A stretch of 64,000 nucleotides of DNA, from positions 77,168-141,167 of IMG/VR virus record IMGVR_UViG_3300021387_000118; one strand, given 5' to 3'. This DNA comes from a virus. Both the position numbers and the translations under genes were made by a program. Under the pieces are notes generated by a model. It did no database searches, had not been told where the DNA came from, and saw nothing but the letters and a program-made list of their open reading frames with translations. Shown here piece after piece: positions 27,246 through 46,879 of the stretch (the stretch's first letter is position 1; every line of letters starts with the position of its first letter).

Positions 27246-29003
27246 TCAACAATTATAAGTAGTAGAACGGCGAGGTGGAGTTATAGAAATATATTTAAAT
27301 AACTAATTTGTTGATTGCTTTGGTCTTAATTTTAATTCTAACTAACACATACACCAATAATTATAAGCAATAGAAGAATAGCGGTCTTTTCGCATACCAG
27401 ACTATTCTTTAACTTTAATATTACCGTTCTTAACTTCGTGATCTAATTTAATTAATTCATATTCTGCCATAGTGGTTTGTAAATATGGCATTTTTATATA
27501 AGCTCGATCTGTTGGAGAAAGCTTAGAATAAGGCTTATAAGATTTTGAAATCTCTTCTTCGCATTCCTAATCTGAAATAAGAAAACTGATTCTTCCATTT
27601 TGTATCCCGTTTCTTAGTAAAACACATATTTCATTATTAAAATTGGCACCCGCTTTAACGGACCAGACCACTTTATTGGCATCTTTAACCTTACAGCGAA
27701 TCGCCATATCATCATCATTAATACATGTTAATGCCTTATAGGTTTTGCCAGTTGAAGAATCGTATTGATCTTTACAAATATAGTCAAAGATTCCAATTCC
27801 CAAACCTCCTGTATCAACTACTAAATCGGTACATTTATATTCATAAAAATAGCGCATAACAATAATTCCAAGTTCATCTGTTGTCAACCCTTCAAAAGTC
27901 TCTCCATAAACAAAATTTGAATGATAACTTGTATCATCCTATTGGATTGCGCTATTAATATACAAGGCAGCAGCATCGTTTTTCTTTTTCTTTGTTGAAC
28001 CCATAAGAGCAACGTCAACAGAAAGAATTCTTTTTTCTGTTGCAGAAACATCAGGAATTCGAATTTTATCATTATAGAATTTTAATGGTAGTAAAGCATT
28101 TTTGATTTTTCTCTATTTATTTATCTCTTCCCACTTAAAGAGATTATCACCATCATCTCCGACCCACATGCATTCCATTTCCATAGTAAAAGCGAGTTCA
28201 TTAAAGTCCGCCTCTGATTTTTCATCCATTACTTGCTCCCTAGATAAGAGTCCTTCCTTAATACTCAATTGATACGGCAATCCACAACAAAAATATCTTT
28301 TAGAATCATCAAAGAAATTAGCCACATATGCTTGTAGTTTTTTCCATGCCCACGAACTTTTAAAATACGCACTAGACATATATATTTCCTTATTTCGTTC
28401 TTGAAGATGTGAATATTCTGGTTTATTTAAATAACCAGGTTGTCTGGGGCTAGTTAAAAACTTCCTAATAACAAGATTCAAAATAGTTTCATCAACCATG
28501 CGGAATTCATCAACAACAATTATATTTGCCCTAGCGCCACGAGCATTATCGGTACTAGTCCTCGTTGTAATCCAAGATCCATTTTTAAACATGATGATCG
28601 CATCGTTCTATCCTATATTACATTTCTCAATTTCGGTACATAATATAGGTGACATTTTCATTAGTTCATCCTATATTTTTAAAAGCACACCATTAGCCTG
28701 TTTAAGAGTTCCAGAACAAACAACAATCTTACTCCCAGGATATAAAATACATCTTACAACACAGAAGAGCGCAGTAAGCCATGATTTTGACATACCACGA
28801 GCAGCAATGAACATAAAATAATTATAATGCATCATTGCCCATATTAATATTTTCTAAAATAATTTTAAATGTATTCCAAGTACTTCTTCCACAAATCTTT
28901 CTGGATTTGCTCTATAATAAGCTGCTCGAAAAGCAACCGTATTCATTATTTTCTATTCCTTATCCTGAGCAATTTCGCGAATAGTTTTTTTTCTTTCTTT
29001 CAT
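27246..29003 (-). CDS. terL: terminase large subunit (586 codons, at least 6 in-frame TAG), TGA stop
   Basis: Walker-B-like IIVVDEF and nuclease-like VVDTGGLGIGIFDY. ATG at 29003 overlaps the upstream TAA. Fragments 28113..28592 and 27567..27887 are in the same frame. Confidence 0.65.
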
Positions 29004-30061
29004 TATAATTCATCGACCTCAGATCCGAATATTTGATCAAACAAAGTTTCAGAATCCGTATCTTCATCATATTGCGGTTTATCAACTGTATATTTTTTGA
29101 TAAACCTTTCATATGTATGAGAAAATGCATTTTTTAACCCCATCATTCGAGACATATGACCTTTAAAAAATACATCAAGATATAAGCCTATCTTATTAAC
29201 TGAACGAAATTCTTCGTCAGGCTCAGGAATAGGTTTCTCATTTTCCCATTTTTGTATCAGTTGCCCAAACGTTTTTGCTTCCGTAAGTGCATTTGAATTA
29301 TTTTGATTTGGTTTTAAAGACATGCTGCCCATAAGATCCTAAAGTGTTTTATCTAATTCTTTCGTATCTTTTCCGGTTCTTTGAGCCTTATCAATCTCTA
29401 ATTCTTTAAAACAAATTCGTTTAAACAATATTTCTTGCGCCTTATTCTCACAGGCATAACGTTTAATCCAGTCTTGATACTCAGATTCTAAAAATAATAA
29501 ATCTGAATTACTATATCCATCACCAAAACGTTTTTTTGCTTGTTTAAGCGTTCTGGAGTTTTCATTTATTTCTTCTTCATCCTTATCTAAATAATCAGCC
29601 GGAAGTTCTGAATCCTTCCAAGTTTTCCCACGCCAATTTGGAAGCGATTTTATAACCGTTATATAATGCTAATAAGCAGTACTTCTATGTTTATCCTATA
29701 TATCTGCACCGCAAGAAGTGAGAGCAGATTGATACATGGAATCAATGTACGGAAGATCCATCATCTTTAACACATCCATTGTTTTTTCACGATTATCCGT
29801 ATACTGATTTGTTTTCTTATCATAATCACAAGCCATCCCAATCAAACATTTTTTGCATATAGGAAATAATCCGCTTGAGTAGTTCTTATCACTATAAAAA
29901 GCATCAACATTATGGAATTCATTACATTTATGACAAAAGTATAAATTACCATCTAATATTCTATTATAATCTTTGGCGAGATTGTTATAGGCTTGCCTAA
30001 TCTATGCAACGCCAGTTTTACGAACCTCGTCTTCTGTCAAAGCTGGTTTCAGCCTAATCAT
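29003..30061 (-). CDS. late Zn-finger protein (353 codons, 4 in-frame TAG); small-terminase candidate by position
   Basis: ATG at 30061 with GGAGATGAGATA as SD. Continuous frame to the TAA at 29003 through 4 TAGs. CHKCNEFH..CKKC motif. Confidence 0.4.
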
Positions 30062-30304
30062 TATCTCATCTCCTTTTAATCATCATAAATAAAAAAAATC
30101 GCCGTCATATATCCAACGATTAGTATTGACAATCAAGAATGGCATTTTCTCCCCTCCAATAACGGGAAATCTAGGTAACGATCCTAGCTTTTGCGTTTAA
30201 CAGCCGCACGTACTTCCAATGTACTAATTTCCCGACAAAATTTAAAATAGAGAGGGCAGTAGCCCTCTCAAAAAGTATAGTGTTGATAATACTATACTGG
30301 AGAC

Positions 30305-30865
30305 TCAATCAAAGACATACTCACAAAGCAAATCATGAATCATATCATCTGTAAGTTTCTTTGTTCCTCTATAAGTAAACTTATAATGATTGCCATCGGA
30401 GTGATCACAAAAAGTAAATCCATAACCATCATCGGTCTTGCAGACACATGCATTACTATCAGCAGCAGTATCATCTGAATCATGCACGTCATCAAATCCA
30501 AATTCTGTTACCCCGTGAGAAGAATTTGTTTCAAGATACTGGTCTATAAAATCCTCCTCAACAAATGCGTAATCTGTCTCCATCATTAAATAGCAGTCAT
30601 GAAGATCGTTATATATTTTGCCAGTATATATTCCTCCGTCTTGTAATTCAAGATACCACGCATCATCATAGCCATCATAATCATACTCATCTAATTGACC
30701 ACCAACAAAACGAACATCATCAACCATTTTGATAATAGTATTCATGGCTTCTTGAATTATTTCATAATAACCAACAACTACAATTTTTTTGTCGCTATCA
30801 TTATCATATAAATCGATAATGTCACCAATTATTTCATATATATCATCTACAACAATTTTTTTCAT
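30305..30865 (-). CDS. acidic hypothetical protein
   Basis: 186-aa ORF with no TAG. TGA stop. Confidence 0.45.
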   Translation of the reverse strand: MKKIVVDDIYEIIGDIIDLYDNDSDKKIVVVGYYEIIQEAMNTIIKMVDDVRFVGGQLDEYDYDGYDDAWYLELQDGGIYTGKIYNDLHDCYLMMETDYAFVEEDFIDQYLETNSSHGVTEFGFDDVHDSDDTAADSNACVCKTDDGYGFTFCDHSDGNHYKFTYRGTKKLTDDMIHDLLCEYVFD

Positions 30866-30884
30866 TTATTTCTCCTTTTAATCC

Positions 30885-32081
30885 TTAATCAAATTTAATA
30901 TTATAGATACATTCCAGCCCATAATTCTTAGAAATAACAAAAGGAGATTGTTCTGCCTTACCAATTAATCGTCTCGATAAAGCATATTCGTCTGTTCCAA
31001 CAAAAGAACCAGATTGGATTACTTTTGTGTTTCCACTAGTTGTCATAGCATTAAAATGTCTATGTCCAAGAACAATTATATCTGGAATATATCCTAACAA
31101 CTTCGTCATGTTTTTTGTAGCATTATCCATGTTATCTAAATCACCATGTACAAAAACAATCTTTTGATTATCTACGTTTACAACAACAATCCCAGGATCA
31201 ATCTCATTATCATAGCAATGAATATTAGGGTAGTTTTGAAGTTTGGATCTCACGAACGGAACAACGAAATTTTCGATATTCTCATGTGCCAAACTGTCTT
31301 CTTTTTTCGCATTCATACGACCATGATTTCCTGGAGCAACATAGAATTTAACAGAATTAAACATTGTACTTAAAATCATTAAAAAATCACAAACGTAATC
31401 TGTTACTATCAAAAACTGATCAATTAAATCCTGGTTATTTTGTAATCTCAAATTATTATGTATTTGACCACTACACAGTTCACTACCTAAAACAATAACA
31501 TCTTCAGCACCATGTCTAATCGCAATATCATGAATTCTATCAAGATAAGCATTTAACATCTGTCGAAGGATATCTATATCATAATCATTCCAACGATTAT
31601 GAATCTCAATACCGCAGTGGATATCAGTTAAAGGTACGACAAGAGTAGTAGCACCACGAATTATTTCTTTATGACTAGCCGGATCATATTCTAATGGTCG
31701 ATTACTAGCAGCCTCTTCAATTGAACGTACAAACAATTCAAGATAAGATTCTTTCCTAGCTTCCTCACGAATTAGCTTATTGTATTGATTTCTTTCATCC
31801 CGTAGTTTCACCTTTTCTTTTTCGAGTTCTCTACGGAGTTCAATTAAATCATCCTCAGTATTATCAATCATTTCATTCTGAACGGCCTTAATACTTGCGT
31901 ATTTTTTCCTGTAAGCAGACTCTCCCCATTCCTCACCGTCACTACGACAATTCTTATTAAATACATTTGCTAATTCGTGCCATGTTTTATCTATAATCCC
32001 ATCTTCTTTCATAGTTCCAAGACGCTTTACATAATTCAATTCTGTTTCTCCAGGCTTACGACTAAGATCAATATAAGACAT
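30885..32081 (-). CDS. metallophosphoesterase, SbcD/Mre11-like nuclease
   Basis: Motifs DIHCG, GNHG and GHRH of the calcineurin-like phosphoesterases. Confidence 0.55.
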   Translation of the reverse strand: MSYIDLSRKPGETELNYVKRLGTMKEDGIIDKTWHELANVFNKNCRSDGEEWGESAYRKKYASIKAVQNEMIDNTEDDLIELRRELEKEKVKLRDERNQYNKLIREEARKESYLELFVRSIEEAASNRPLEYDPASHKEIIRGATTLVVPLTDIHCGIEIHNRWNDYDIDILRQMLNAYLDRIHDIAIRHGAEDVIVLGSELCSGQIHNNLRLQNNQDLIDQFLIVTDYVCDFLMILSTMFNSVKFYVAPGNHGRMNAKKEDSLAHENIENFVVPFVRSKLQNYPNIHCYDNEIDPGIVVVNVDNQKIVFVHGDLDNMDNATKNMTKLLGYIPDIIVLGHRHFNAMTTSGNTKVIQSGSFVGTDEYALSRRLIGKAEQSPFVISKNYGLECIYNIKFD

Positions 32082-32086
32082 CTATA

Positions 32087-32305
32087 TCAATCCTCCTCAA
32101 ATTCATCGGTAAGATCTTCATCTGTTTTAAGTGCAAGACTGAGTTCAATAGGCTGACCAGCAAACTTTTCAAAGCACTTTGATACGGGGATCTCCATTTC
32201 TTCCTTATCTCCATTAACATAAGTGATTATCTTACCATCATTAGAAAGTTCACCCTTAATACTAAACTTCTTTGTTGTTACCTTATTATACTTATAATTC
32301 TGCAT
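32087..32305 (-). CDS. hypothetical protein
   Basis: 72-aa ORF. Confidence 0.35.
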   Translation of the reverse strand: MQNYKYNKVTTKKFSIKGELSNDGKIITYVNGDKEEMEIPVSKCFEKFAGQPIELSLALKTDEDLTDEFEED

Positions 32306-32334
32306 TTTTATTTTCTCCTTTTAATCCTTAATTA

Positions 32335-32652
32335 TTATTTACTTGACATTTTTAAAGTGACTCCAGAATTTTGCTTTGACCGTTGAAAAGTATTATTTTT
32401 TTCAAATAACGTAATAGCCATAGCTTCTTCTCTGGAAAATCCTGCGTCTTCCAATGATTTGACTTTTTTCGCATATAATTTGGAATCAACCTCAAACCAC
32501 TCATCGTTATCAACTAAATCTTTATAAACGCTCAAAAGTTCTCTGCCAATTGTATAAATTAATCCCTTATATTTCTTAAAAACATCCGATATTATCAGAT
32601 TTAAACTAGTTGGATCTTCCGATAAAAGATCCAATAACGTATTTAAATTCAT
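32335..32652 (-). CDS. hypothetical protein
   Basis: 105-aa ORF. Confidence 0.35.
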   Translation of the reverse strand: MNLNTLLDLLSEDPTSLNLIISDVFKKYKGLIYTIGRELLSVYKDLVDNDEWFEVDSKLYAKKVKSLEDAGFSREEAMAITLFEKNNTFQRSKQNSGVTLKMSSK

Positions 32653-32691
32653 ATCCTTTTAATCCTTTCATATATAAAGAAAGGATGAGAA

Positions 32692-33303
32692 TTAGAGTAT
32701 CTCATCCATATCACAATCTTCACCAATTATCTTATGAACAATTCCAAAACTTTTTGCTTTGTCTGGATACATCCACATCTCTTGTTCATAAACACTATCG
32801 TAAAACTCTGATGTCATAGTAGTTTTAGAAAGTATAAACGCTTTAGCTCGTTCTTCTTGAGAATCAAAAAACTCAACGTTATTCTTTGCTTTACTACGAG
32901 AGTTTTCGATTAATATATCCCCTTCGTGCTGCAAAAAGGCGCTATCTTTGTACGAGTACCTAACGTGACATGCAAGATAGCAAAGATATGCGGCACTAGC
33001 TACAAGGTCAAGAGCAATTCCCCAGATTGGAGTTTTACTGGCTTCAATTACGTCAATCATATTGTTTGCATTAAATACATTTCCGCCAGGAGAGCTAATA
33101 AACAGCTTAATAGGCTGTCTGCTTTCAATGGGCAAGTTTTTATCTTCCTTATTCCATTTAAGAATATACATAATATAATCTTCAATTACATTCTCACTGA
33201 TTTCATCATTCATGAACAATGTTCTATCCTGAAGAAACTCTCTATATAATTCATCAAAAGCACTATCATTATTATTTCCAGCAATAGCAAGTAAATCAGC
33301 CAT
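32692..33303 (-). CDS. ClpP-like serine peptidase
   Basis: ISSPGGNV and DLVASAAY resemble ClpP (S14) motifs. Confidence 0.4.
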   Translation of the reverse strand: MADLLAIAGNNNDSAFDELYREFLQDRTLFMNDEISENVIEDYIMYILKWNKEDKNLPIESRQPIKLFISSPGGNVFNANNMIDVIEASKTPIWGIALDLVASAAYLCYLACHVRYSYKDSAFLQHEGDILIENSRSKAKNNVEFFDSQEERAKAFILSKTTMTSEFYDSVYEQEMWMYPDKAKSFGIVHKIIGEDCDMDEIL

Positions 33304-33309
33304 ATGTAA

Positions 33310-33627
33310 TCACTCCTTTACCGTTGTTAATTCCGCAATCTTCTTGTTTAATTCATCAATCTGTTTTTTAAGATCAGCTGTTTCAGATTGTTCACGAGAT
33401 TTCTTATTTTCATCAATTAATTCCGCGAATACTTTTTGAAATTCATCTGTATCCTTAAACACAAACACACTTCGTTTTCCATCTGGATCTGACCTGTCCG
33501 CCTTAACATCAATAATTTCCTGACCCTTATGCAAAAGCTGTCGTGCAATTTGTGCCTTTCTAATAACTTTACCCTTAATCTCAGGTTCCATATTTTCAAA
33601 CGAATTTTTTGTTGTAATAATATTCAT
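33310..33627 (-). CDS. coiled-coil hypothetical protein
   Basis: 105-aa ORF. Confidence 0.35.
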   Translation of the reverse strand: MNIITTKNSFENMEPEIKGKVIRKAQIARQLLHKGQEIIDVKADRSDPDGKRSVFVFKDTDEFQKVFAELIDENKKSREQSETADLKKQIDELNKKIAELTTVKE

Positions 33628-33642
33628 ATTGTTATTCTCCTT

Positions 33643-34476
33643 TTAATCCTTATTTTGAAACATGTTCGCATAAAGCTGACTTGTTTCACTTCGTACATCA
33701 GCATCTAACGCAATACATGCAAATAGTTTGTTACCTTTTAATTCATTACACATTTTAACTAACGGATTATTAGACGAAACATCTAATAATGATTGTTTAA
33801 TATCTCCATTCCAAAAAATTCTTCCCTCTTCACCAATTCGAGTTCCGATTAATCTAATTTGTTTCTCTGTCAGATCTTCAGCCTCGTCGATGCAAATTAT
33901 GCAGGAAGGATAGGTGGTCCCTTTCATATATGTTGGAATATTAAATTCAATAACACCTTGGTCTTGCAACCTATCTACTTCATATTCTTGACCCTCAAAT
34001 TGCTGTTTTATAGGTAATGACCAAACAGAATGTTTTTCTTCAAATGTACCTTTCAGATATCCCTCGGATCTACCTTCTCCCCACGGCTCGCGAACAAAGC
34101 AGATTTTGGACTGCCACCCTTTTTCTCTTACGCAGTAATCAGCCATCCTAGTAACTAAATAACTTTTTCCTCCACCAGGCACTCCAAGAATTGCACATAC
34201 AGTAATATCTTTATTATTCAACATATCTAATGCGCATCTCTGTAATGCGTTTTTACCTTTGATAATTTTCGATGGTGGAAGTTTTAAACTAACAAACTTT
34301 TCACCGTCAAACCGCATTTCCTTTTCTGAATTATCATCCGTGTTTTTGATAATTAAATATTCATTACAATACCAATCATCAAGACTCATATCATTCATAT
34401 AGTCATTTATCTCATTAGTATTTCCAGAAATTGACTTATAACCTTTATATATAGACAAATCCTCACTTCCCCTCAA
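33643..34476 (-). CDS. P-loop NTPase (PhoH-like)
   Basis: Walker A motif GVPGGGKSY. Confidence 0.5.
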   Translation of the reverse strand: MRGSEDLSIYKGYKSISGNTNEINDYMNDMSLDDWYCNEYLIIKNTDDNSEKEMRFDGEKFVSLKLPPSKIIKGKNALQRCALDMLNNKDITVCAILGVPGGGKSYLVTRMADYCVREKGWQSKICFVREPWGEGRSEGYLKGTFEEKHSVWSLPIKQQFEGQEYEVDRLQDQGVIEFNIPTYMKGTTYPSCIICIDEAEDLTEKQIRLIGTRIGEEGRIFWNGDIKQSLLDVSSNNPLVKMCNELKGNKLFACIALDADVRSETSQLYANMFQNKD

Positions 34477-34672
34477 CAGTATATGTATGGTCTTTCCTAT
34501 ATTGATTCAATAATTTTACTGCTTTAGGACTAGTTGTTAAAAAATAAGTCTTCGCATTTTTTCCATGACTCCTAGAACTCATATGAACATCATGCCCAAG
34601 TCCGGCCTCACGGATCATAAAAGCCTCTGCTTTTGTAATATCTATCATATATATTGATTCCTTTTCTTTCAT
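34463..34672 (-). CDS. small hypothetical protein
   Basis: 69-aa ORF. Confidence 0.3.
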   Translation of the reverse strand: MKEKESIYMIDITKAEAFMIREAGLGHDVHMSSRSHGKNAKTYFLTTSPKAVKLLNQYRKDHTYTVEGK

Positions 34673-34687
34673 TTTATTTACGCAACA

Positions 34688-34713
34688 AAAATAGGAGAGT
34701 GGTATACTCTCCT
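34688..34713 (-). terminator. hairpin terminator after tRNA-Pro
   Basis: 8-bp stem AGGAGAGU/ACUCUCCU followed by a U-run on the minus strand. Confidence 0.4.
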
Positions 34714-34740
34714 TAAAACTTTACGCATAATGTTTTTTAG

Positions 34741-34812
34741 TTGGGATGACTGGAGTCGGACCAGCCTGATCTAGTTCCCAAAACTAGGGCCTAACCGCTA
34801 GGCTACATCCCA
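34741..34812 (-). tRNA. tRNA-Pro (anticodon UGG)
   Basis: Hand-folded cloverleaf. Acceptor UGGGAUG/CAUCCCA, D-stem GCCU/AGGC, anticodon stem CUAGU/ACUAG, loop UUUGGGA, T-stem GCUGG/CCAGU. Confidence 0.6.
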
Positions 34813-35077
34813 AAAAATGTCGGGTGAGTGCACGTAAACTCACGCTTCTACTTCTGGATTTCACAAACTTTATTATGGAGTTATTCCTCCGGTGTTCCAT
34901 ATAATAGCTATATTTTCTTCTCGGCTTTTTAACTCTAAGAGTCGCTACCTTGCCTACCGACATAAATAACTAGACACTATGTTAATTCAATCTTTCTTTG
35001 AAACAGTTCTACGCATTAACCTATATTTGTTCATATAATATAATTTTTTGCTGTTAGTGTCTAAATAATATTTCCAA

Positions 35078-35350
35078 TTAAAGAACTGCTTCCTTAAATT
35101 TCTTTCCAAACTTTGCCTTTGGAACATTTTTTGAAGCAACCATCATCGTCTCACCTGTGCGAGGATTACGACATTCTCTAGCATTCTGTTCCCTTACTTC
35201 GATACTAAGACCATTAAAAAGCTGCACCTTGCCAGTATCCTTAAGCGAGTCTACGACAGTATCTTCCAAAATCATATAAAGTTCCTTCGCATCTTTCTTT
35301 GTAATATGAGCATTATTCGCAAACGCATCAATAAGTTCTTTTCTATTCAT
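35078..35350 (-). CDS. HU/IHF-family DNA-binding protein
   Basis: 90 aa with an RNPRTGE arm motif. Confidence 0.7.
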   Translation of the reverse strand: MNRKELIDAFANNAHITKKDAKELYMILEDTVVDSLKDTGKVQLFNGLSIEVREQNARECRNPRTGETMMVASKNVPKAKFGKKFKEAVL

Positions 35351-35600
35351 ATATATTTTTCTCCTTTTAATCCTTAATGTTTAATTTTATAACATAAGCG
35401 CTTATTAGGTGTTTATTCCCTACCACACCCAAAGACTGTTCAATTGTTATATTAAATCATGATTCCGTATTTATTAACACCGCACTCGGCAATAGCGGTG
35501 GAGAGGATATATGATAATACATCAAAATCTCCCTCATATAACGGATTTTAGCACAAGTGTAAAATTTGGTAATATATAAAGAAAATTTGCGCTTCATATT

Positions 35601-36527
35601 TTACGATGCTAAACCGTTTTTAAAGCAATTTAAGAACTTTTCTTTATTTGTCTTATATAAAACATTCAACATTTTTCTTGTATACTTTGTTGCGCTTTTA
35701 TATAAATACTTAGTATTTGTTTTGCCGTCTATTCCCAAAGATGTTTCGATTAATCGATAAATAGTTGCATTGCTGATCTTCATATGAGAAACACGTTGAA
35801 TAATTTCTTCAGTCTTTTCTAGCAGAGGATATATTTCCATATCATCATCGTCATGCCATAATTGAAGAAAATGTTTTACATAATTATCATATTCTTCTAC
35901 GGCCTTTCTAATTTTTCCCATCTGAGTTGCTTTAGGTGTTCCAGGTGGTTTATCTGATAAAAACGAATATGTATCAACAATGTTATCACGATCCGCACCC
36001 TGTATTTTATCTAATGCATCTTGTAACCAATTCATTGGACATATCAATTTATCATCAATCCTTCTTTGAACTTTATCTTTATCCTTTTTTATTTCAGACT
36101 GTGGACGTTCCTTCCCATTCTTTGTATAAGCAATTTTATGGGTCCATTTCATAAATTTAGGATAATCCTTTTTCCTATTCATGCATGGTTGTTGCCTTAT
36201 GCGTTGAATGTCATTGTTGACATCCACGGAATATTCGCGTTTACACCCATCGATCGCGAGCTGGGCACATACTGCCAATATCACGGTGTTTTCATAAAGT
36301 TGTTTACAGTCATTATCAATTTCACCGTTTGCAATTTTAGTCCAATAATAACTCTGACTTAATTGGGCGCTATCAGAAGATCCACCAATCGCTTTTTGAG
36401 CACCTTGCATTGCAGAGTCCATTTTCGCATAGTCAGTCATCGTATTATTATAAATGACTCCACTTTCCGGTACCTCATTGACAACAGTAGGATATTCTTT
36501 ATATGCTATTTTCGCAGACTTAACCAT
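35601..36527 (-). CDS. hypothetical protein, possible 3' exon of a split replication gene
   Basis: 308-aa ORF. Its frame is open from about 36588, immediately after intron core R4. Confidence 0.4.
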   Translation of the reverse strand: MVKSAKIAYKEYPTVVNEVPESGVIYNNTMTDYAKMDSAMQGAQKAIGGSSDSAQLSQSYYWTKIANGEIDNDCKQLYENTVILAVCAQLAIDGCKREYSVDVNNDIQRIRQQPCMNRKKDYPKFMKWTHKIAYTKNGKERPQSEIKKDKDKVQRRIDDKLICPMNWLQDALDKIQGADRDNIVDTYSFLSDKPPGTPKATQMGKIRKAVEEYDNYVKHFLQLWHDDDDMEIYPLLEKTEEIIQRVSHMKISNATIYRLIETSLGIDGKTNTKYLYKSATKYTRKMLNVLYKTNKEKFLNCFKNGLAS

Positions 36528-36539
36528 CTCTGGTTGATT

Positions 36540-36820
36540 AGTAACAAAATTAAAATCTGAATCAACATTTTCTTATATCCTGGCTCTTTATCCAGGAACT
36601 CTTCTTTTTCGAAGAGGATGAGACTATATCATGACCCTCGTTTAACGTTAGGCGAATGCTATCCTATATATAGCAGTCTTGGGATTTCGTGTCTGGATTA
36701 TTGTTTGTCTACTCACCAGTTAGTCGTTTGACCTTCTTGCTACCTCAGTGACTTTCACAAGCTTGGTTCCGAGTTTATTCATTCTCGGAATTAACCCAAT
36801 ATTTTTTGAACTGAGTTTCC
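36540..36820 (-). ncRNA. group I intron ribozyme core (R4)
   Basis: R element GUCAAACGACUAACUGG (plus 36717..36734) and S element GAUAUAGUCUC (plus 36622..36632). Begins at the UGA of the upstream 596-aa ORF. CUGAG-GAAA-CUCAG hairpin at the 5' end. Confidence 0.5.
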
Positions 36821-38611
36821 TCAGAACCGACCCTGATTATTTGAGTCCATACCATTCATACGTGCCTGAACATCTGTATGAATGCAATTTACAGCCATAA
36901 TATTGTTACTAAATTCAAAATATTTCTCCATTAGAGGATGTTTAACATTTTTAAAATATCCTAGATTATTACTACTATTGTGAGGATTACGTATACCACA
37001 CAAATATTCTCCATCACAAAATCTAGGAGTATATACTTGAATAACTCCATCATCCTGCAAAAGAGTTGGATCTTCTTCCCATGATTTCCCAACAGTATAT
37101 AATAATAAAGCATATGGATTTCCGCACACCGTCAAGTTATCACCGTGAACCGTAATTTTACCTTTACGAAGTTTTGCCACATAATCATTAATAATTTTTG
37201 ATTTATCTACTTTCCACATTTTGCTATTTTCGAAATCATTATTCCAGGCATATAAATCTGCAAGCATTTCATAGTGATTAACAGCAGTAGCATTTTTTCG
37301 TAAAAATTTTTCAAATTCATGATTGTTAGATTTTAATAAATTTACATAGTCAATACTTGTCTGAGCAATCTTATGTATATCATCAGATGTACAAGGTAGC
37401 GTGTTAATCATTTGATATGACATCTGTTGAACATCATTTAATTTTGACGGATGATCCGTTTTGACAATGCCCCATGTGCAATTATCTGCTCTGACATGAT
37501 TGCACCAATAGTCATAAGCAAGCGGCAGAGTACCACCTATAAGATCAACAAACTTTTTAAATTTGGTTGCATTATCAGTAGTAATCATTTTTATGTTCTT
37601 TGCCAAATGCCTATTGCCGTACATATCAGTAATTTCATAAGTATCATAATCTATATTATTATCTTGACAATAATCTTTGATAAACTGTTGAATACGAGTT
37701 CTAAACGCACAGGCTTTAAAAAAGTGATTTCTTAACAACGCCATACCATTGCACCAATCTGGCATAACAGTTGTTTCAATTAATGCCATTCCGTCCCATA
37801 AGGTATTCTTTACATTTGTTTCTTCTCTATGAACAGTACACCTTTTTCTTATTTCTTTTTCGCCATTTTTTAATGTTACCTCATAATCTTCGGCCCTTAC
37901 TATGTCAGCTATAGTATTGAAAAAACTATCTTTATCTTCCAGGATCAAAACATCTTCAACAGGAATGTTAATCGTTCCCTCTATCGCAGAAGTTGATAAT
38001 GGGGCATAGGCGGAAATTTCCACGATCTTTGCCCCATGATCTGGGAGAAGCTTTCCAATCCCCATAGTTAACCAGTTATATGCTTTATCATATAATTCAT
38101 CTCTAATAAACATGACACTACCTTGTTTCGCCTTAGATGGATTACGATAAAGCATCTTATAATAGATTGTTTCTTCCGTTACTTCGCCAGTTTTATTATC
38201 AACTTTATTATATGTAATATGGGTCCCTTGTTCATAAAAAATCCGGCGTATATCATCCTTTGATAGTTTCTTATATAAGTTCTTTTTAGATTTTACTTTT
38301 TCTTCCAAAGTATCAATTAATGCAAGCTGCTCCTGATTATCTTCAGCCTCTTTCCTCATTGAAGCAATATGACTTAGTTCTTCTTTGTAACTTCTCAAAC
38401 CAAATTGAAAGTCTATGCAGATAATATCTCTAGTAGACTCATCTTTTTTATCTGTTTGCATGCCATTATTTTTTAGCCAATGAGTAAATAAAGAATGGTG
38501 CAACATAGCTTCAGTATAGTCATACCTATCTCTGATGCCAGTATTTTTGCCGTAAACAGTAGCAGCTTTATAGTTTCTTATTTTCCATCCATATTGTCCT
38601 ATAGAGATCAT
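36821..38611 (-). CDS. large replication-associated protein (possible TOPRIM/primase-like), candidate 5' exon
   Basis: 596 aa with an IEG...LEDKD pattern. The UGA stop sits at the intron R4 boundary. Confidence 0.35.
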   Translation of the reverse strand: MISIGQYGWKIRNYKAATVYGKNTGIRDRYDYTEAMLHHSLFTHWLKNNGMQTDKKDESTRDIICIDFQFGLRSYKEELSHIASMRKEAEDNQEQLALIDTLEEKVKSKKNLYKKLSKDDIRRIFYEQGTHITYNKVDNKTGEVTEETIYYKMLYRNPSKAKQGSVMFIRDELYDKAYNWLTMGIGKLLPDHGAKIVEISAYAPLSTSAIEGTINIPVEDVLILEDKDSFFNTIADIVRAEDYEVTLKNGEKEIRKRCTVHREETNVKNTLWDGMALIETTVMPDWCNGMALLRNHFFKACAFRTRIQQFIKDYCQDNNIDYDTYEITDMYGNRHLAKNIKMITTDNATKFKKFVDLIGGTLPLAYDYWCNHVRADNCTWGIVKTDHPSKLNDVQQMSYQMINTLPCTSDDIHKIAQTSIDYVNLLKSNNHEFEKFLRKNATAVNHYEMLADLYAWNNDFENSKMWKVDKSKIINDYVAKLRKGKITVHGDNLTVCGNPYALLLYTVGKSWEEDPTLLQDDGVIQVYTPRFCDGEYLCGIRNPHNSSNNLGYFKNVKHPLMEKYFEFSNNIMAVNCIHTDVQARMNGMDSNNQGRF

Positions 38612-38628
38612 CTCCCATCATTATATAT

Positions 38629-39378
38629 TCATTGTTTAACATCAACAATGTTATTGCTATTGTATTTTGCCAAAGTTCCACGAACAAGACTGCGGATTAT
38701 CATATTGCTTTCTTCCGAGTTGGGAGAGTTGTAAATATTATTACAGACAATATCTGTAACGCATGAGTTAAACTCAGATGGCAACATGTTACCTTTCATC
38801 CTGTTACATGTTTTATGAGCCGGATATAAGTTGTCCATATGATTTGTTCCGCCACGACTCAACGGAATCAAGTGTTCCAATGTCCAATCTTCATCAGCAA
38901 TAGGTTTGCCGCAATAGATACACACATTGGATTTTTTTGCCACAGCACATTTTGTGACTGGACTAATTTTAATCCTTTTACTAGAATCAATATCTTCCTG
39001 AAGCTGTTTCTTAAACACTTCGGGATGTTTAAATCTTCTGAAGTTGCTATCAATCACAACTGGGTTGTCAATATTCTGAAATGAACCCCCATGTTCTTCA
39101 ATGTAATCATATGCGGCGTTAACCGTGGCGAATGTCATCGCACCTTTATAGCTAGAAGTTATTTCTCCATCTTTGCCGACAAAATACTGTTTTGTTGAAA
39201 CAACGTAACCTTTGTTCTTTGAATTACCATGTTTAAAAACCATATGGTCGGGATGGACGCTAACGTACCTTTGCGCCTCTGACTGTTTCATATGAGTAGC
39301 AGCAGAAGGACTAGTATAAAGGTTGCCGAGTCCCTGGATAAACATGATTTCATTTGATATACGATAATTGACAGCCAT
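38629..39378 (-). CDS. HNH endonuclease
   Basis: CIYCG...EHLIPLSRGGTNHMDNLYPAHKTCN motif. Confidence 0.7.
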   Translation of the reverse strand: MAVNYRISNEIMFIQGLGNLYTSPSAATHMKQSEAQRYVSVHPDHMVFKHGNSKNKGYVVSTKQYFVGKDGEITSSYKGAMTFATVNAAYDYIEEHGGSFQNIDNPVVIDSNFRRFKHPEVFKKQLQEDIDSSKRIKISPVTKCAVAKKSNVCIYCGKPIADEDWTLEHLIPLSRGGTNHMDNLYPAHKTCNRMKGNMLPSEFNSCVTDIVCNNIYNSPNSEESNMIIRSLVRGTLAKYNSNNIVDVKQ

Positions 39379-39412
39379 TATAATACCTCCTTTAATAAAA
39401 AATAATGTTACG

Positions 39413-40330
39413 TCAATTATTATTGCTTAATTCATCATCGATCATTTTTACCAAATTTTCATAACCATTTGTGGAATAAAGGATTGCAAAACCTTTATTG
39501 ATGTTTTTGTAGTTGGTTGATTTTTTTGTTGTTTCAACTAAGTACTTAAGATTCTGGTGGGAATTAAACAGTTTATACAGCTGAGTAATGTCATAATTAT
39601 TTGCCACCTTTTTCCTGGCAAGACGAGCGGCGAGTTCTCTAATCAATTCAGGACATCTCATAGCATCTACAGAATTGAAGTCACGTTCAGGACTGTCAAT
39701 GGCGAATGATGCCATCAGATGCTGAATAGCCTGTTTGAAATAACCCATCAAAACATCACTATTGGAAACCATATTAATAGCTGAAGTCTTGATTTTGCGG
39801 GTTCTCCTCAATTCATATACATCAATGCCGGAGATCTTCTTCATGGTATCATATACTTTATTATATGTATCCTGATGCGCAAGTCCTGATAAAACCGCAA
39901 GACTCCGTACCTTTTTATTATATTCTTCCCGCCACTCATATTTCTCCTTGTCACTAAGCTTGCTTACAAACTGGAACTTTCCGGCAGATTCTGCTTCAAC
40001 ATCTGATCTGGCATTAGCAATATTAGATAAGGAATCTTTTAATTCCTTAACGGAGAAAACGATATTGTCAATCTGGGCAACATTTGGAACACTCGTCTTA
40101 ATACCACAAATATCTACTCCCATGTTAGAGATATTCGAGGAAATTTTTTCGAGGATTTTATTCTGTTCATCAAAACTTTTTTTCAATTTGTCTGTAATTG
40201 CTGTTGCTAAATTGTCAACATTAAGAGAAAGATCCTTATTGAATTTAACAAGATTATCTTTAAGATCACTAGTAACAGCAGTAAAATACATTGCAATTTC
40301 TTCATTGGTCAGAGGTGTTTTATTATCCAT
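39413..40330 (-). CDS. hypothetical protein
   Basis: 305-aa ORF. Confidence 0.4.
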   Translation of the reverse strand: MDNKTPLTNEEIAMYFTAVTSDLKDNLVKFNKDLSLNVDNLATAITDKLKKSFDEQNKILEKISSNISNMGVDICGIKTSVPNVAQIDNIVFSVKELKDSLSNIANARSDVEAESAGKFQFVSKLSDKEKYEWREEYNKKVRSLAVLSGLAHQDTYNKVYDTMKKISGIDVYELRRTRKIKTSAINMVSNSDVLMGYFKQAIQHLMASFAIDSPERDFNSVDAMRCPELIRELAARLARKKVANNYDITQLYKLFNSHQNLKYLVETTKKSTNYKNINKGFAILYSTNGYENLVKMIDDELSNNN

Positions 40331-40362
40331 AGTATTATTCCTTTCTAATTAATAAATGATAA

Positions 40363-41592
40363 TTAATAGTCAATGACTACTTCATCATCAATGATGGCAA
40401 CATCCGTTATGCTTGCTTTTTTAATTACGCGATCTAGCGAATCGATCATAGATTTGCAAGTGTTGTAGAGACGCTGGTATAGTATATTGTTGTTCACACA
40501 TTGTGTGAGAGAATCGCCGTTTTCAATTGGAGCAATAACCGTATTTTGAAACTCAACGCATTTCTTACAAAAATCAAATACAATATCTGAAGTGACGCAA
40601 TTGTCATATGTTGGCTGCACTTCCTTGCGGTATGTTTCCATCTGAAGTTTGATACTATCTCGTTCATTCTTAAGAGCTGTAATTTCATTAGAACGAGAGA
40701 GAAGATCATCTTGTAAAACATCTACCTGTCTTGTAAGATCGGCAATTGTCTCATATGCTGAATTAAGCGTTCCGGTTAATTTATTTTCGGTTTTATCATC
40801 ATCCTCTTTAATAGCAGCCTTAATAGCATTCAGATCATCATCGGAAAGTTTTTCAATAGTTACTGGAGACTGTAGCTGCGCTTTGAGAGATTCTTTTTCT
40901 TTAACAAGTTGTTCTTTCTCATCAGAAAGAATTTTGACCTTATTAATATAGAAATCAATTTCTTTGTTGCTAACTTTCCCATCTTTCTCAGAAAGTTGAT
41001 CTGCAAGTTCTCGTTGCTCATCTTCGGATAATCTCTTCACAATCGCTCTTGCCGTAGTTGCTGTAACATTGCCCGTGTTAATCAAATCCTGAATTTCTGG
41101 GATCATGGTGGCAAGTTGCTTGTAGTTCTGAAGAGACTGCCTGGTAAGTCCAAGCTGGGCGGCGAGGTCTGATTCGGTAGTAGGAGCTTCTTCAATCAAA
41201 GTAAAATTATTTGACTTTGATTTTCTATCACCACCATGTTGAATTCCATAAATCCGTTCTAGTGTTTGGATGCATCGCCCGAACTTTACCGGATTTGGGT
41301 TGCCGATGCCACGCTGGCGAATGTTCGTTTCTATTAAATCTTTTAGCATCTGCTCATCAGAATTATACTGCTTGGTTTCGGTCATTACCTCCTTAATCCC
41401 AAGTTCTTTACATGCTCGAATTCTTTGATGCCCAGATATTATCATTTTATTCTGATTAATAATAATTGGTTCAATAACGCCGGAAGTTTGAACGGAGCGA
41501 AGAAATTCATCCCAGGCTTCTCCGGTAATATCATCAAAATAATAATCATTCTGCGGATGCGGTACAAGATCTGCTACTGGCAATAATTGCAT
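40363..41592 (-). CDS. ParB/Srx-like N-terminal domain protein with coiled-coil C-terminus
   Basis: IINQNKMIISGHQRIRAC motif. No ParA partner nearby. Confidence 0.55.
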   Translation of the reverse strand: MQLLPVADLVPHPQNDYYFDDITGEAWDEFLRSVQTSGVIEPIIINQNKMIISGHQRIRACKELGIKEVMTETKQYNSDEQMLKDLIETNIRQRGIGNPNPVKFGRCIQTLERIYGIQHGGDRKSKSNNFTLIEEAPTTESDLAAQLGLTRQSLQNYKQLATMIPEIQDLINTGNVTATTARAIVKRLSEDEQRELADQLSEKDGKVSNKEIDFYINKVKILSDEKEQLVKEKESLKAQLQSPVTIEKLSDDDLNAIKAAIKEDDDKTENKLTGTLNSAYETIADLTRQVDVLQDDLLSRSNEITALKNERDSIKLQMETYRKEVQPTYDNCVTSDIVFDFCKKCVEFQNTVIAPIENGDSLTQCVNNNILYQRLYNTCKSMIDSLDRVIKKASITDVAIIDDEVVIDY

Positions 41593-41757
41593 GTAAACCT
41601 CCTTACTGAATACAGTATTTAATAAATGATATTTAGTTATTTAGAATAATAATTGATCTGACGAATCTTGTCAAGCACAATTTATTTGTTAAGAAAATCT
41701 TAATAATTAGGTGAAGTGCAAAATCTGTTAATATGGCGAAGAAATATTCCCTTGAGG

Positions 41758-41862
41758 GATTGTGAGTGCACCGCACTTTAGCGCACTGAAGTGACTGTGA
41801 GTGCACCTTTTTTGCCATTTAGGGGACTGTGAGTGCACCTCACGAAACTACAAGTTTCGTAA
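41758..41862. repeat. iteron array (3x GAYTGTGAGTGCACC) plus hairpin
   Basis: Copies at 41758..41772, 41793..41807 and 41825..41839, spaced 32-35 bp. Half-site AGTGCA at about 41714. Hairpin ACGAAACU/AGUUUCGU at 41840..41862. Confidence 0.55.
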
Positions 41863-41937
41863 GTATATTAACAAAAATTGACCATTTTTTTGGTTGGGAT
41901 CCTTCTATGTCTTACCGAGTAGTGTCTTAATAAAGTC

Positions 41938-42504
41938 TTAAGAATTATTCTGTCTCATTAATAGTTCTTTCCAGCCACTTGAATTATAAAAAGAATGAAT
42001 TGTTTTATTGATATCATTACCTCTAAAATAAATATATGGATTAACTGTAAATACTGTTTGGTTAGGAACATCTTCATATAAAATATTTCCAGATTCATGT
42101 TTGCCGATAACACCCTTATGCTGAAGAGCAGCCATTAATTTTTTAGCATAATCATATTTGTATCCATGAATCTCGGCAAGTTCTTTTATGGATAATATTT
42201 TACTTCTTCTATCCATTGTTTTTCTTATTATACAATCTTCAAATGATACATGAGGAGTTAAACATATTGCAAATTTAAATTCTGGAAGAGTCAGATATTT
42301 TTCTAATAATGGTACTACTTCATCATATATTTTTACAAACGATTTATCTCTATTAAAGTCTATTATTCTTGAGTCTATATAATCTTGTTGTTCTTTACGG
42401 CGAACAGATAACTGATCTCCCTGATAGTATTGATCGATGATTTCTCCGGTAGATGTACTTATTAATACTCTTTCTGGGGTTTTTTCTATTTGATTTTCGT
42501 TCAT
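41938..42504 (-). CDS. Rep-like/regulatory DNA-binding protein next to the iterons
   Basis: 188-aa ORF immediately upstream of the iteron array. Confidence 0.35.
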   Translation of the reverse strand: MNENQIEKTPERVLISTSTGEIIDQYYQGDQLSVRRKEQQDYIDSRIIDFNRDKSFVKIYDEVVPLLEKYLTLPEFKFAICLTPHVSFEDCIIRKTMDRRSKILSIKELAEIHGYKYDYAKKLMAALQHKGVIGKHESGNILYEDVPNQTVFTVNPYIYFRGNDINKTIHSFYNSSGWKELLMRQNNS

Positions 42505-42707
42505 TATTATATTCCTTTCTTTGGTTATTTATACCTATAACTGACGTTTGTCTTTTACTACATCCAAAGTAGTAAAAATATTTTTTTGATAGATGACGAT
42601 GTAAAACAGTTGAAAATATATTATATCATGTTAACTAGTGCCAATGGTTTAATAATTCATATCCGCATTTATGTTATGATTGTAACGGCGGAAATAGCTG
42701 TATCATA

Positions 42708-42738
42708 CGCATTAATATATTGGCCGCCTTTGTAAATT
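42708..42738. repeat. direct repeat flanking the GIY-YIG gene (copy 1)
   Basis: ACGCA..TGGCCGCCTTTGT. Second copy at 43645..43675. Confidence 0.45.
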
Positions 42739-42766
42739 CAATACTGTCGTATATGAATTTACTAAC

Positions 42767-43519
42767 TTATAATAATATTTTTTCTATGTCGTTTTTAATA
42801 TTATTATTAATAGCAGTAATATATGATTGAAAATTATTCTTTGTCAACCATTCTGTATAGATTTCTATGTCATTAATTATATATGTTGTTTTAGTTATCA
42901 GATCATTATTTTTAATATAAGATATGTTTCTTTTTGTCAAGTAGCTATCAGGGCTTTTTTCGATCAATTGTTTTATTTTTGAAGATGTTTTTCTGCTACC
43001 TTTATTCTTTTTCTCAGTAATGTCGTTTAATGTTGGAACTCTTATTATCATAAATTTATCATCAACCAACTCTATATTATGGTTTGACATTATTGATATT
43101 ATGTATTTTTTAATTGCTTCAGCAGAATATGATTTGTCATAATATACTAATTTCTTGTTGTATAGGATATTATGTAATGTATCTTCTATGTTGTATAATT
43201 TATAATTTTTAGAATAATGATTAATATATTCGTATTCTAATATGATTAATTCTGCTTTTGTTCTCATAGAATTATAGGATAAATGCGGCTGTATAATTTT
43301 AAATTCAAAAGAATCAATTCCATAATTTATACAATCATTCTGTATCTGTTTATTGTAATGGTTTCCATTTATTAATAAATCATAATGTTCTTTTCTACGA
43401 CGTTGTATGTTCATACTTTCACCTATATAAAAGACATTTGTTTTTCTATTAATTATTGTATAAATTCCTGATAGATTTGCTACTTCAAACAAATTATTGT
43501 TTATAAATGAGATCGGCAT
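42767..43519 (-). CDS. GIY-YIG homing endonuclease
   Basis: GIYTIINRKTNVFYIGESMNIQRRRKEH motif. Confidence 0.7.
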   Translation of the reverse strand: MPISFINNNLFEVANLSGIYTIINRKTNVFYIGESMNIQRRRKEHYDLLINGNHYNKQIQNDCINYGIDSFEFKIIQPHLSYNSMRTKAELIILEYEYINHYSKNYKLYNIEDTLHNILYNKKLVYYDKSYSAEAIKKYIISIMSNHNIELVDDKFMIIRVPTLNDITEKKNKGSRKTSSKIKQLIEKSPDSYLTKRNISYIKNNDLITKTTYIINDIEIYTEWLTKNNFQSYITAINNNIKNDIEKILL

Positions 43520-44093: not shown

Positions 44094-44793
44094 GTCACCC
44101 GTCAACCACTACGAAGTAGTCACCCCGGCAACGCCGATGCCCGATAGGGTATCGAAGGGAAGAGCGAAGCCATTCGGGAGCAAACCCGGAACACCAAACA
44201 AAAACCCGGTACACCGCTAGACCGTTACAGTAACGCAAGTGCCCATTTGCAGGAGCGTGACAAGAGCAGACGCAAGCGAGTTTTCCCCCTAGTACGTGGA
44301 AAAGGGGCGCGAAGAAGGAGCGATGCGAGAAGAACACAGCCCCGACCGGATGAGTCCCATTTGACAAGGCCGAACCCCACCCGAAACAATAGACCGGCTT
44401 ATGTAAGACCATAGCAGTGATTCACTGCGAGGTTGAGTGCTTCACTTGACCGTTAGCATGGCAGTAAGACGAGAAGAGGAACGGATCGCACTATTGCGAA
44501 ACCTGAAAAGCGCATTGAATGAGATATCACCCCCTGCAGGGGAATGATCAAATTCACGTTGTGGCATGATACGAGCGAAAAACGCCGTCACCCATGACAA
44601 CGAAAAAATAAACCCTTTTCCAGTTTGGCTGGGTTTGCCCGGATTGCGTGAGTTCCGCAATGGTCAGAAACTGGAGCCGTGGAACGTCCCGGAATTGTCA
44701 CCCGGTGAACGCCTGATCAATTCAGACGCTGACCGGGGAACAGTTCCCCTGAACCATTATTCAGAGCGCATAAATGCGCAGAAAGGACGAGAC
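44094..44793 (+). ncRNA. GC-rich hairpin-dense non-coding element (candidate large structured RNA / regulatory leader)
   Basis: About 55% GC in an AT-rich genome. No plausible ORF (the antisense ORFs look spurious). Many short hairpins (CUACGAAGUAG, CCCCUGCAGGGG, AUUGCG-N7-CGCAAU). 17-bp direct repeats at 44119 and 44697. Confidence 0.35.
44766..44779. promoter_or_regulatory. perfect palindrome GCGCATAAATGCGC (operator candidate)
   Basis: Lies 15 nt upstream of the SD of the first early gene. Confidence 0.4.
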
Positions 44794-45663: not shown

Positions 45664-45742
45664 AACCCACACACCCCCGGCGGGATATCCTGCCGGGGAT
45701 GCATCCCGGAAGCCGTAACCGGGTAAACAACAGCTTGAGAAC

Positions 45743-45913
45743 ATGAAAAAATGGGAGTGCTTTAATATTACTGTTGTCGAAGGTAACAGCGTGTATCCCA
45801 ACGCTTGCGTGTGGGATACAGTCCACCAGTCCGAGCAGATTGAAACCATTCGCCGGGACGGCGTGTGGATTGACGAGGACGGTGTGGAATACGTCTTCGG
45901 AGATAACGACTAA
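45743..45913 (+). CDS. small hypothetical protein (56 aa)
   Basis: Hand-translated. Conserved leader AACAACAGCTTGAGAACATGA. Confidence 0.4.
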   Translation: MKKWECFNITVVEGNSVYPNACVWDTVHQSEQIETIRRDGVWIDEDGVEYVFGDND

Positions 45914-45938
45914 AAGAGCGCTGATGCGCTCTTTTTTT
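45914..45938 (+). terminator. rho-independent terminator
   Basis: AGAGCGC-UGAU-GCGCUCU followed by U7. Confidence 0.6.
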
Positions 45939-46079
45939 ATTGCCTTTTTTTTATGATTGAGTTTTTTATATAAATCATCGCATTTATATAAAAACCTGAA
46001 CCATAAAAATATTTTTCCGGGGAGTATTTGCACGTCATTTTTAATGCGTCATTAAATAACCCCCGGCAGGAGGTATGTT

Positions 46080-46877: not shown

Positions 46878-46879
46878 TG

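Follow-up and report, generated by a model that had tools for sequence, protein, structure and literature searches.

Introduction

Reading of the amber stop codon TAG as a sense codon has been described for several groups of gut phages, comprising the crAss-like phages (Yutin 2021, PMC7886860) as well as the Lak, Garnet, Topaz, Agate and other clades (Borges 2021, 10.1101/2021.08.26.457843). Recoding that is restricted to late genes, an early phase in the standard code and integrases free of TAG all belong to these earlier descriptions (PMC7886860; 10.1101/2021.08.26.457843). Here, we analyzed a stretch of 64,000 nucleotides from the virus record IMGVR_UViG_3300021387_000118 (IMG/VR, positions 77,168 to 141,167; the whole stretch is called the window below), in which an arm of late genes carries TAG as a sense codon, most likely for glutamine, the remaining genes are free of in-frame TAG, and an amber suppressor tRNA gene, tRNA(CUA), is split by a putative group I intron. 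A preliminary description of this DNA had pointed to a sharp code boundary at about 30.1–30.3 kb and had suggested a temporal control of suppression, plausibly through an intron-gated tRNA. Our interpretation is broadly the established one, the window presenting a partial code switch of the kind already described; the intron-split, class II-shaped suppressor is its most interesting side feature.

Like the recoded gut phages, the window combines TAG as a probable glutamine codon with a phage-encoded suppressor tRNA and a concentration of in-frame TAG in structural genes; its early genes and its integrase are compatible with the standard code, and closely related lineages use different codes. 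It differs from them in its backbone, which is that of an SPbeta-like Bacillota siphophage with a putative YonO-type RNA polymerase, and in its suppressor, a gene located within the recoded arm and interrupted by the putative intron. A further described system is phAss-1 (OQ749652; proposed Phassvirus, Babkin 2023, PMC10607447), a human gut siphophage of 136 kb that uses code 15 and carries suppressor tRNA(CUA) genes. This phage shares with the window the in-frame TAG in terminase, portal and tape measure genes and the order of YonG-like, terminase, portal and capsid genes, but is only distantly related, the two terminases being 24% identical. Moreover, phAss-1 has three intact suppressors that were typed as glutamine tRNAs by tRNAscan-SE (PMC10607447), whereas the window has one, which is class II-shaped and bears an intron.

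The Bacillus phage SPbeta (SPBc2, NC_001884) resembles the window in its gene order and its divergent early arm, and its phage-encoded single-chain RNA polymerase has a putative counterpart there. On the SPbeta map, yonO, yonN (HU), yonK, yonJ, yonH, yonG, yonF and yonE lie on one strand, and the divergent arm extends from yonR. Genes for PhoH and a ClpP-like protease, several homing endonucleases and three introns of group I, two of them putative, are present in the window in addition to what SPbeta has. No tRNA(CUA) was present in the syntenic region of SPbeta that we examined, and we know of no codon reassignment described for this phage.

Results

Gene content and gene order place the window among SPbeta-like phages

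Read in the standard code, the minus strand from position 1 to about 30 kb yielded short open reading frames (ORFs), whereas reading TAG as a sense codon produced long, tiled genes. TAG alone had this effect, as neither TGA nor TAA as sense codon restored long minus-strand ORFs over 1–30 kb. When translated with TAG as glutamine, the late proteins matched phage families, namely terminase, portal, YonG-like and YonB-like proteins, which became full-length and matched strongly, a LAGLIDADG-type endonuclease, an HNH endonuclease and a tyrosine integrase. The large terminase has thousands of homologues, of which the best 120 are 583–589 amino acids (aa) long and 70–91% identical. The SPbeta terminase, encoded by yonF, is 42% identical to that of the window, and no annotated phages are closer than Bacillus SPbeta and its relatives. 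The gene order yonO-yonN-yonJ-yonG-yonF-yonE is kept in the window, together with a divergent early arm, and the Pfam families YonJ, YonG, YonB, YonD and YomW occur on contigs encoding close homologues of window proteins. Relatives in the genome collection come from gut Bacillota assemblies, for example Faecalimonas, Lachnospiraceae and Clostridia. Judged by these genes and relatives, the window belongs to the genome of a siphophage from gut Bacillota that is SPbeta-like. A crAss-like identity was ruled out, the genes and the gene order being SPbeta-like. At the DNA level, no match to the region 30–44 kb was found in the collection of phage records. When the YonJ protein was the sole query for relatives, only one near-identical contig was retrieved, and a terminase alignment was used instead to define the related loci, which are numbered L001 and so on below. 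For all counts, the window was divided into three modules:

3–30061, minus strand: module A, the late arm
30305–43519, minus strand: module B, the middle block
44566–63909, plus strand: module C, the divergent arm, 49 small genes with Shine-Dalgarno sites

In-frame TAG is confined to the late arm

The preliminary description had claimed that the block between 30 and 43 kb contains no TAG, not even as a stop, and had proposed counting TAG codons in each module. Module A comprises 8963 codons, of which 123 are in-frame TAG (31% of its glutamine codons), and its genes end with TAA (25) or TGA (8) and never with TAG. For module B, we counted the minus-strand ORFs of at least 60 aa (n = 17, covering 88% of the block) and found no in-frame TAG in 3845 codons, the stops being 10 TAA, 7 TGA and no TAG. 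The 49 genes of module C likewise lack in-frame TAG (5429 codons) and end with 37 TAA, 9 TGA and 3 TAG. The count thus amounts to 13.7, 0 and 0 in-frame TAG per 1000 codons for modules A, B and C, and the claim of a TAG-free block holds. The plus-strand arm, which had been presented as differing from this block, is just as free of in-frame TAG. At the density of module A, 52.8 sense TAG codons would be expected in module B, and the Poisson probability of finding none is 1.2e-23. In the two other frames, TAG occurs 15.9 and 19.5 times per 1000 codons in module B versus 14.8 and 16.5 times in module A; since off-frame TAG is equally common in both modules, its absence from module B is frame-specific. 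The TAG-containing ORFs within module B were alternative-frame shadows or overlapped a tRNA-Pro gene, and there were no others. The TAG-bearing genes of the late arm include the following:

29003–30061, minus strand: YonG homologue, the first recoded gene, 4 TAG (30004, 29698, 29671 and 29341)
27246–29003, minus strand: large terminase, 10 TAG in 585 codons
25595–27226, minus strand: portal, 6 TAG
20912–22030, minus strand: YonB-like probable capsid protein, 1 TAG in 372 codons
3–5126, minus strand: giant ORF, probably the tape measure protein, 41 TAG in 1708 codons

The uneven load of these genes could reflect efficiency rather than timing. Suppression would then be leaky and slow, TAG would be tolerated only in proteins required in low amounts, and the products of module B would need efficient synthesis whenever they are made. 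Indeed, the presumed most abundant late proteins are the poorest in TAG, as seen for the YonB-like protein and for ORF 14536–14985 (none in 149 codons), by contrast with the terminase and the giant ORF. However, module B enzymes needed at trace levels, such as the HNH and GIY-YIG endonucleases and the RNA polymerase, are also TAG-free, as are all codons counted in modules B and C, and the transition between the modules is a step and not a gradient. We therefore regard an explanation by efficiency as quite improbable.

The code boundary is narrow and conserved in relatives

The last stop codon of module B lies at 30305 and the first sense TAG at 30004, 19 codons inside the YonG homologue that starts at 30061, so that the boundary is about 300 nucleotides (nt) wide. 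Following the minus strand, the stop at 30305 is succeeded by a hairpin (30269–30250), a tRNA gene (30234–30162) and a spacer of about 100 nt, which ends in ATGATTAAAAGGAG before the YonG start at 30061:

30250–30269, minus strand: terminator-like hairpin of 8 bp, 6 of them G-C, with a T-rich tail, right after the last module B stop
30162–30234, minus strand: tRNA-Asn(GUU), matched locally by the tRNA model of Rfam with 47.8 bits

Recoding is module-specific, as had been suggested, with its edge at 30.06–30.3 kb, and the same edge is found in the relatives L001, L054 and L055, where in-frame TAG sets in at the YonG or the terminase gene. In L006, additional TAG-bearing ORFs lie slightly upstream of the boundary. 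L001, L055 and L005 have a hairpin in the corresponding position, and a tRNA slot plus a conserved ribosome-binding region recur in these three loci and also in L002, which uses the standard code. No convincing sigma-70 promoter was found at the boundary or for the suppressor tRNA. As a side observation, one tRNA always lies upstream of the YonG homologue and its identity varies, being Asn(GUU) in the window, Asn(AUU) in the near-identical L005 (1501–1573), Pro in L001 (8818–8893) and Met in L002 (8826–8897). In L038, the suppressor adjoins a tRNA-Pro gene, upstream of the YonG and terminase genes.

Beyond the boundary, module B contains the following recognizable features:

42767–43519, minus strand: GIY-YIG endonuclease, no TAG, GC content 0.23
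40363–41592, minus strand: ParB-like protein
38629–39378, minus strand: HNH endonuclease, no TAG
35601–38611, minus strand: YonO-like RNA polymerase, split
36599–36853, minus strand: putative group I intron in the polymerase gene, 40.4 bits in a local search
35078–35350, minus strand: HU
34740–34812, minus strand: tRNA-Pro
33643–34398, minus strand: PhoH
32692–33303, minus strand: ClpP-like protease
30885–32081, minus strand: YonJ-like exonuclease

The block had been called one of replication and middle genes, but we recognized no replication gene in it, finding instead an RNA polymerase, HU, PhoH, a protease, an exonuclease, a ParB-like protein and endonucleases. Its layout also had to be revised. 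The sixteen intact ORFs described as back-to-back are indeed TAG-free, but they number 17 and are not strictly contiguous, leaving gaps at 34672–35078 (with tRNA-Pro), 35350–35601, 41592–41938 and 42504–42767; ORF 41633–41818 is a doubtful gene. The stop codons given for the block carry the codons listed (30305 TGA, 30885 TAA, 32692 TAA, 33643 TAA, 36821 TGA, 38629 TGA, 39413 TGA, 40363 TAA, 41938 TAA and 42767 TAA), although they had been announced as seven and the list holds ten. One of them, the TGA at 36821, is not a gene end, as it sits within the putative group I intron that splits the polymerase gene. This gene aligned to residues 77–495 of YonO with 21% identity (E = 1e-7), a weak but significant match. 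It also matches phrog_8308, occupies the syntenic slot beside HU and has an Asp-rich motif at the aligned site. The intron splits the gene within a motif, between NG and EDFDSD. L055 encodes an unbroken polymerase homologue of 871 aa (1305–3920), and the gene of L001 is apparently split like that of the window.

TAG most likely encodes glutamine

The 13 late proteins used for this question contain 43 TAG sites that we could compare, by alignment, with DNA loci whose terminase gene has no in-frame stop. Glutamine was the majority residue at 13 of the 43 sites and made up 27% of the site-weighted composition. It was invariant at position 50 of the terminase (75/75) and at position 241 of the YonG homologue (73/73), and 7 of the 10 TAG sites in the terminase were mostly glutamine. 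In addition, CAG is less frequent in module A (9.0 per 1000 codons) than in module B (18.2), a depletion that is consistent with CAG-to-TAG transitions. The aligned residues thereby point to glutamine as the most likely meaning of TAG in the late arm. Tyrosine, leucine or serine, as the class II shape of the suppressor would predict, were ruled out by the residues at the TAG sites, being in the majority at none, two and four of the 43, respectively.

Stop codons of the TAG-free modules

As a reference for stop-codon usage, we used 39 standard-code relatives with 10-kb flanks, loci that are not independent, many coming from one metagenome. Their genes end with TAA (68%), TAG (23.5%) or TGA (8.6%), and on the side equivalent to module B the share of TAG is 20.1%. 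Compared to this share, the 0 of 17 TAG stops in module B yield p = 0.022 in a binomial and p = 0.05 in a Fisher test; from the window alone, the lack of TAG even as a stop is thus weakly significant. In eight recoded relatives, the B-side ORFs end with 30 TAA, 32 TGA and 6 TAG. Four of these six TAG precede 76–212 more in-frame codons and are therefore probably sense codons, leaving at most two real TAG stops. Pooling the recoded relatives with the window, at most 2 of 81 B-side stops are TAG (p = 3e-6). In turn, TGA stops are enriched both in module B (7/17 versus 35/353, p = 0.001) and in module A (8/33 versus 32/429, p = 0.004). These counts indicate that the recoded lineages have lost TAG as a stop codon and use TGA in its place. 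A module that lacks sense TAG and yet was purged of TAG stops and gained TGA implies that its messages are still translated once suppression is active.

The preliminary description had set against the block a TAG stop of the plus-strand arm, at 57375–57377. This stop is real and is one of three among the 49 genes, the only TAG stops of the window:

57375–57377, plus strand: TAG stop
59964–59966, plus strand: TAG stop
63438–63440, plus strand: TAG stop

The contrast in stops between block and arm is, however, not significant (0/17 versus 3/49, Fisher p = 0.56). All three TAG stops are backed by a TGA or TAA 1–3 codons further on, an arrangement shared by 24% of the other module C genes (p about 0.014). 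Read-through of the three would add only a few residues. The entire non-structural part of the window, comprising modules B and C, is thus readable under either code.

The same stops bear on a mosaic history of the window, in which modules B and C would have recombined in recently from standard-code relatives and would be too young to contain sense TAG, without any selection. These phages are mosaic, as the gene content upstream of the YonG homologue differs among L001, L006, L054 and L055, and the arms of the window differ sharply in composition, with a GC content of 0.28–0.48 and a CAG share of CAA plus CAG of 29%, 51% and 80% for modules A, B and C, respectively. The stops of module B (0% TAG, 41% TGA), however, resemble those of the recoded relatives and not those of the standard-code ones (20% TAG, 10% TGA), and the same boundary occurs in relatives whose terminases are only 64–87% identical to that of the window. 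A recent recombination of this kind is, in our view, very improbable.

The suppressor tRNA is split by a putative group I intron

The preliminary description had referred to an intron-gated tRNA, and an intron-interrupted tRNA(CUA) gene is present within the recoded arm, next to the portal gene:

25267–25556, minus strand: amber suppressor tRNA(CUA), intron-split, with a long variable arm, an A1-U72 pair and G73
25325–25520, minus strand: putative group I intron in the tRNA(CUA), 196 nt, between anticodon bases U35 and A36
25565–25589, minus strand: hairpin of 11 bp and a T run, downstream of the portal stop and separated from the suppressor tRNA by about 8 nt

With ARAGORN at default settings and with Rfam at its gathering score, the tRNA-Asn and tRNA-Pro genes alone were detected and the suppressor was missed, whereas ARAGORN with introns allowed reported the split tRNA at 25267–25556 on the minus strand. 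The label tRNA-Leu(AAG) that it assigned was ruled out, as intron-less alleles give a junction between CTCT and AAAA. Joining the exon ends GGTCTCT and AAAACCG yields the anticodon loop CUCUAAA, and ARAGORN then recognizes a tRNA(cta) with a long variable arm. The Rfam model Intron_gpI matched 25353–25532 with 43.3 bits (local E = 1e-9). The last base of the 5' exon is U and that of the intron is G; pairing of the 5' exon with GGAG of the intron is possible and would place a U-G wobble at the splice site. Among the relatives, L038 carries an intron-less tRNA(CUA) whose anticodon and variable arms are identical to those of the window copy. L006 has a homologous intron of 231 nt with a conserved core, inserted at the same position of a different tRNA(CUA), and L009 contains the intron-less form of this second tRNA. 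The intron-less alleles in L038 and L009 thus confirm the splice junction of the window. L005 also has a tRNA(CUA) without an intron. The notion that suppression is gated by the intron is accordingly hard to uphold: the suppressors of L005, L038 and L009 are intron-less, and the same intron occurs in two unrelated tRNA(CUA) genes, as expected of a mobile intron, whereas a regulator that is essential could not be dispensed with. It is therefore probably a mobile passenger and not a required gate.

In its architecture, the intron resembles group I introns of bacterial tRNAs (cyanobacterial tRNA-Leu(UAA), Azoarcus tRNA-Ile, Patescibacteria PMC13011429), being compact, ORF-less and located in the anticodon loop, with the 5' exon U opposite a guide-sequence G and a G at the intron end. 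It differs from these introns in its host gene, a phage amber suppressor, and in its insertion between anticodon positions 35 and 36. In our literature searches, we came across no description of a phage suppressor tRNA that contains an intron. Because default tRNA finders missed the suppressor on account of its intron, "missing" suppressors of other recoded phages may hide in the same way.

Besides the window, 4 of 10 related loci that are recoded carry a tRNA(CUA) gene, versus 0 of 72 standard-code viral loci and 0 of 71 genome loci. The copies in the relatives are located as follows:

L005, 6805–6896: tRNA(CUA)
L006, 13881–14198: tRNA(CUA)
L009, 5674–5762: tRNA(CUA)
L038, 3878–3969: tRNA(CUA)

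In this phage group, tRNA(CUA) falls into four sequence types, all of class II shape with a long variable arm and a length of 87–94 nt. The A1-U72 pair and G73 occur in the suppressors of the window and of L005, the two whose folds were inspected. G73 and a weak first pair are reminiscent of the classical glutamine-inserting mutants of the E. coli tRNA-Tyr su+3. Regarding the origin of the suppressor, we saw no convincing similarity to the tRNA-Tyr, tRNA-Ser or tRNA-Leu genes of related phages, and an exact-match search of viral contigs with the 3' exon gave no match. Neither a release-factor nor a synthetase gene was seen within the 64-kb window. Given its position about 8 nt behind the portal 3' hairpin and the lack of an evident promoter of its own, read-through probably produces the suppressor along with the very messages that depend on it.

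A probable staging of suppression

The reading that we consider likely is that the late packaging, head and tail genes alone read TAG as glutamine, that modules B and C are readable under both codes and that suppression is staged. As modules B and C are devoid of sense TAG, a naive host translates them correctly, and as they contain almost no TAG stops, their proteins are not extended after suppression starts. The codon distributions, the glutamine that homologues have at TAG sites, the suppressor gene with its intron junction and the conservation of the boundary are direct observations, from which we infer timing, co-transcription, self-splicing and charging. In such a scheme, the host would make the early and middle proteins in the standard code, including the YonO-like single-chain RNA polymerase, and this polymerase would then transcribe the late arm. 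Part of this arm is the tRNA(CUA) gene, which immediately follows the portal gene; the precursor tRNA would self-splice, a host synthetase would charge the spliced tRNA(CUA) with glutamine, and the TAG-bearing late mRNAs should thereby become translatable. A temporal control of suppression of this type, as the preliminary description had suggested, would be the same as in the published model (PMC7886860; 10.1101/2021.08.26.457843). As a well-resolved case of partial TAG-to-glutamine recoding in a group with a laboratory model, namely SPbeta with YonO, the window could make the timing hypothesis testable.

Several points weigh against the staged reading. The class II shape of the tRNA(CUA) is unexpected for a glutamine acceptor, and the intron matches in the tRNA and in the polymerase gene remain below the Rfam gathering score (43.3 and 40.4 bits versus 50). 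In SPbeta, YonO transcribes the late operon starting upstream of yonK, so that yonJ is included (PMC5467207). By synteny, the late promoter of the window would lie at about 34.4–35.1 kb, between HU and the genes upstream of YonJ. The code edge would then fall within the late transcription unit and not at the early/late switch, and PhoH, the ClpP-like protease, YonJ and ORF 30305–30865 might be transcribed late though they are TAG-free. Finally, the 64-kb window is part of a probably much larger genome (related contigs measure about 100–200 kb, for example IMGVR_UViG_3300031867_000003 with 202 kb), and further suppressor copies, release-factor or synthetase genes could be located outside of it.

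SPbeta-like phages are temperate, and the late arm contains an island of TAG-free genes around an integrase (10504–13912, minus strand):

10504–11427, minus strand: tyrosine integrase
11580–11963, minus strand: ORF
12529–12945, minus strand: ORF
12977–13912, minus strand: HNH endonuclease

The island comprises 883 codons, and the probability of finding no TAG in it at the density of the arm is 5e-6. Such a pattern would be expected if recoding served as a safeguard of lysogeny, as proposed by Borges et al., keeping the lytic structural genes untranslatable in the prophage while lysogeny-related genes stay in the standard code, and a TAG-free integrase is part of the pattern that they reported (10.1101/2021.08.26.457843). 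Most genes of module B, such as those for RNA polymerase, exonuclease, PhoH and protease, have functions in the lytic cycle, however, and their freedom from TAG would be left unexplained; moreover, the window showed neither an attachment site nor a junction with host DNA. A safeguard of this kind, which is compatible with timing, is possible but rather unlikely as the explanation of the pattern.

In addition to the staged reading, we considered whether the code switch is wired into RNA processing, with the only suppressor seen placed inside the operon that depends on it, directly behind a terminator-like hairpin and with a predicted self-splicing intron cutting its anticodon. We hold this to be improbable. 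If it were true and splicing were slow or conditional, the time until TAG can be read would be determined by the two introns of the tRNA and polymerase genes, a tRNA of class II shape would in addition have become a glutamine acceptor, and intron-hidden suppressors could account for those recoded phages that seem to lack a suppressor. The gene of the polymerase that would drive late transcription also has a putative group I intron, at its catalytic motif.

Additional features of the window

Beyond the genes described so far, the late arm harbors two further TAG-bearing ORFs and a third intron:

17714–18580, minus strand: LAGLIDADG-like endonuclease, 2 TAG
24707–25162, minus strand: ORF with an HNH-like Cys/His pattern, 2 TAG, a candidate assigned by eye
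14214–14548, minus strand: third intron of group I, exceeding the gathering score with 53.4 bits

The third intron begins at the end of ORF 14536–14985 (GC content 0.43, no TAG), upstream of the HNH gene at 12977–13912. Genes of the homing-endonuclease type are dense in the window, comprising LAGLIDADG-like, HNH and GIY-YIG members and the ORF with the HNH-like pattern, and in L051 and L045 the terminase gene itself apparently carries insertions.

For the plus-strand arm, ten proteins were tested without a PHROG match, and three of these were also without a Pfam match. Repeats at 43.4–53 kb yielded nothing informative. The GC content rises from 0.28 at 42–44 kb to 0.48 at 44–48 kb and then falls to 0.36 by 64 kb. 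Within the late arm, the plus-strand ORFs 20909–22366 (486 codons) and 23000–23776 (259 codons) lie across the capsid and scaffold-like genes and are probably non-coding shadows of these GC-richer minus-strand genes.

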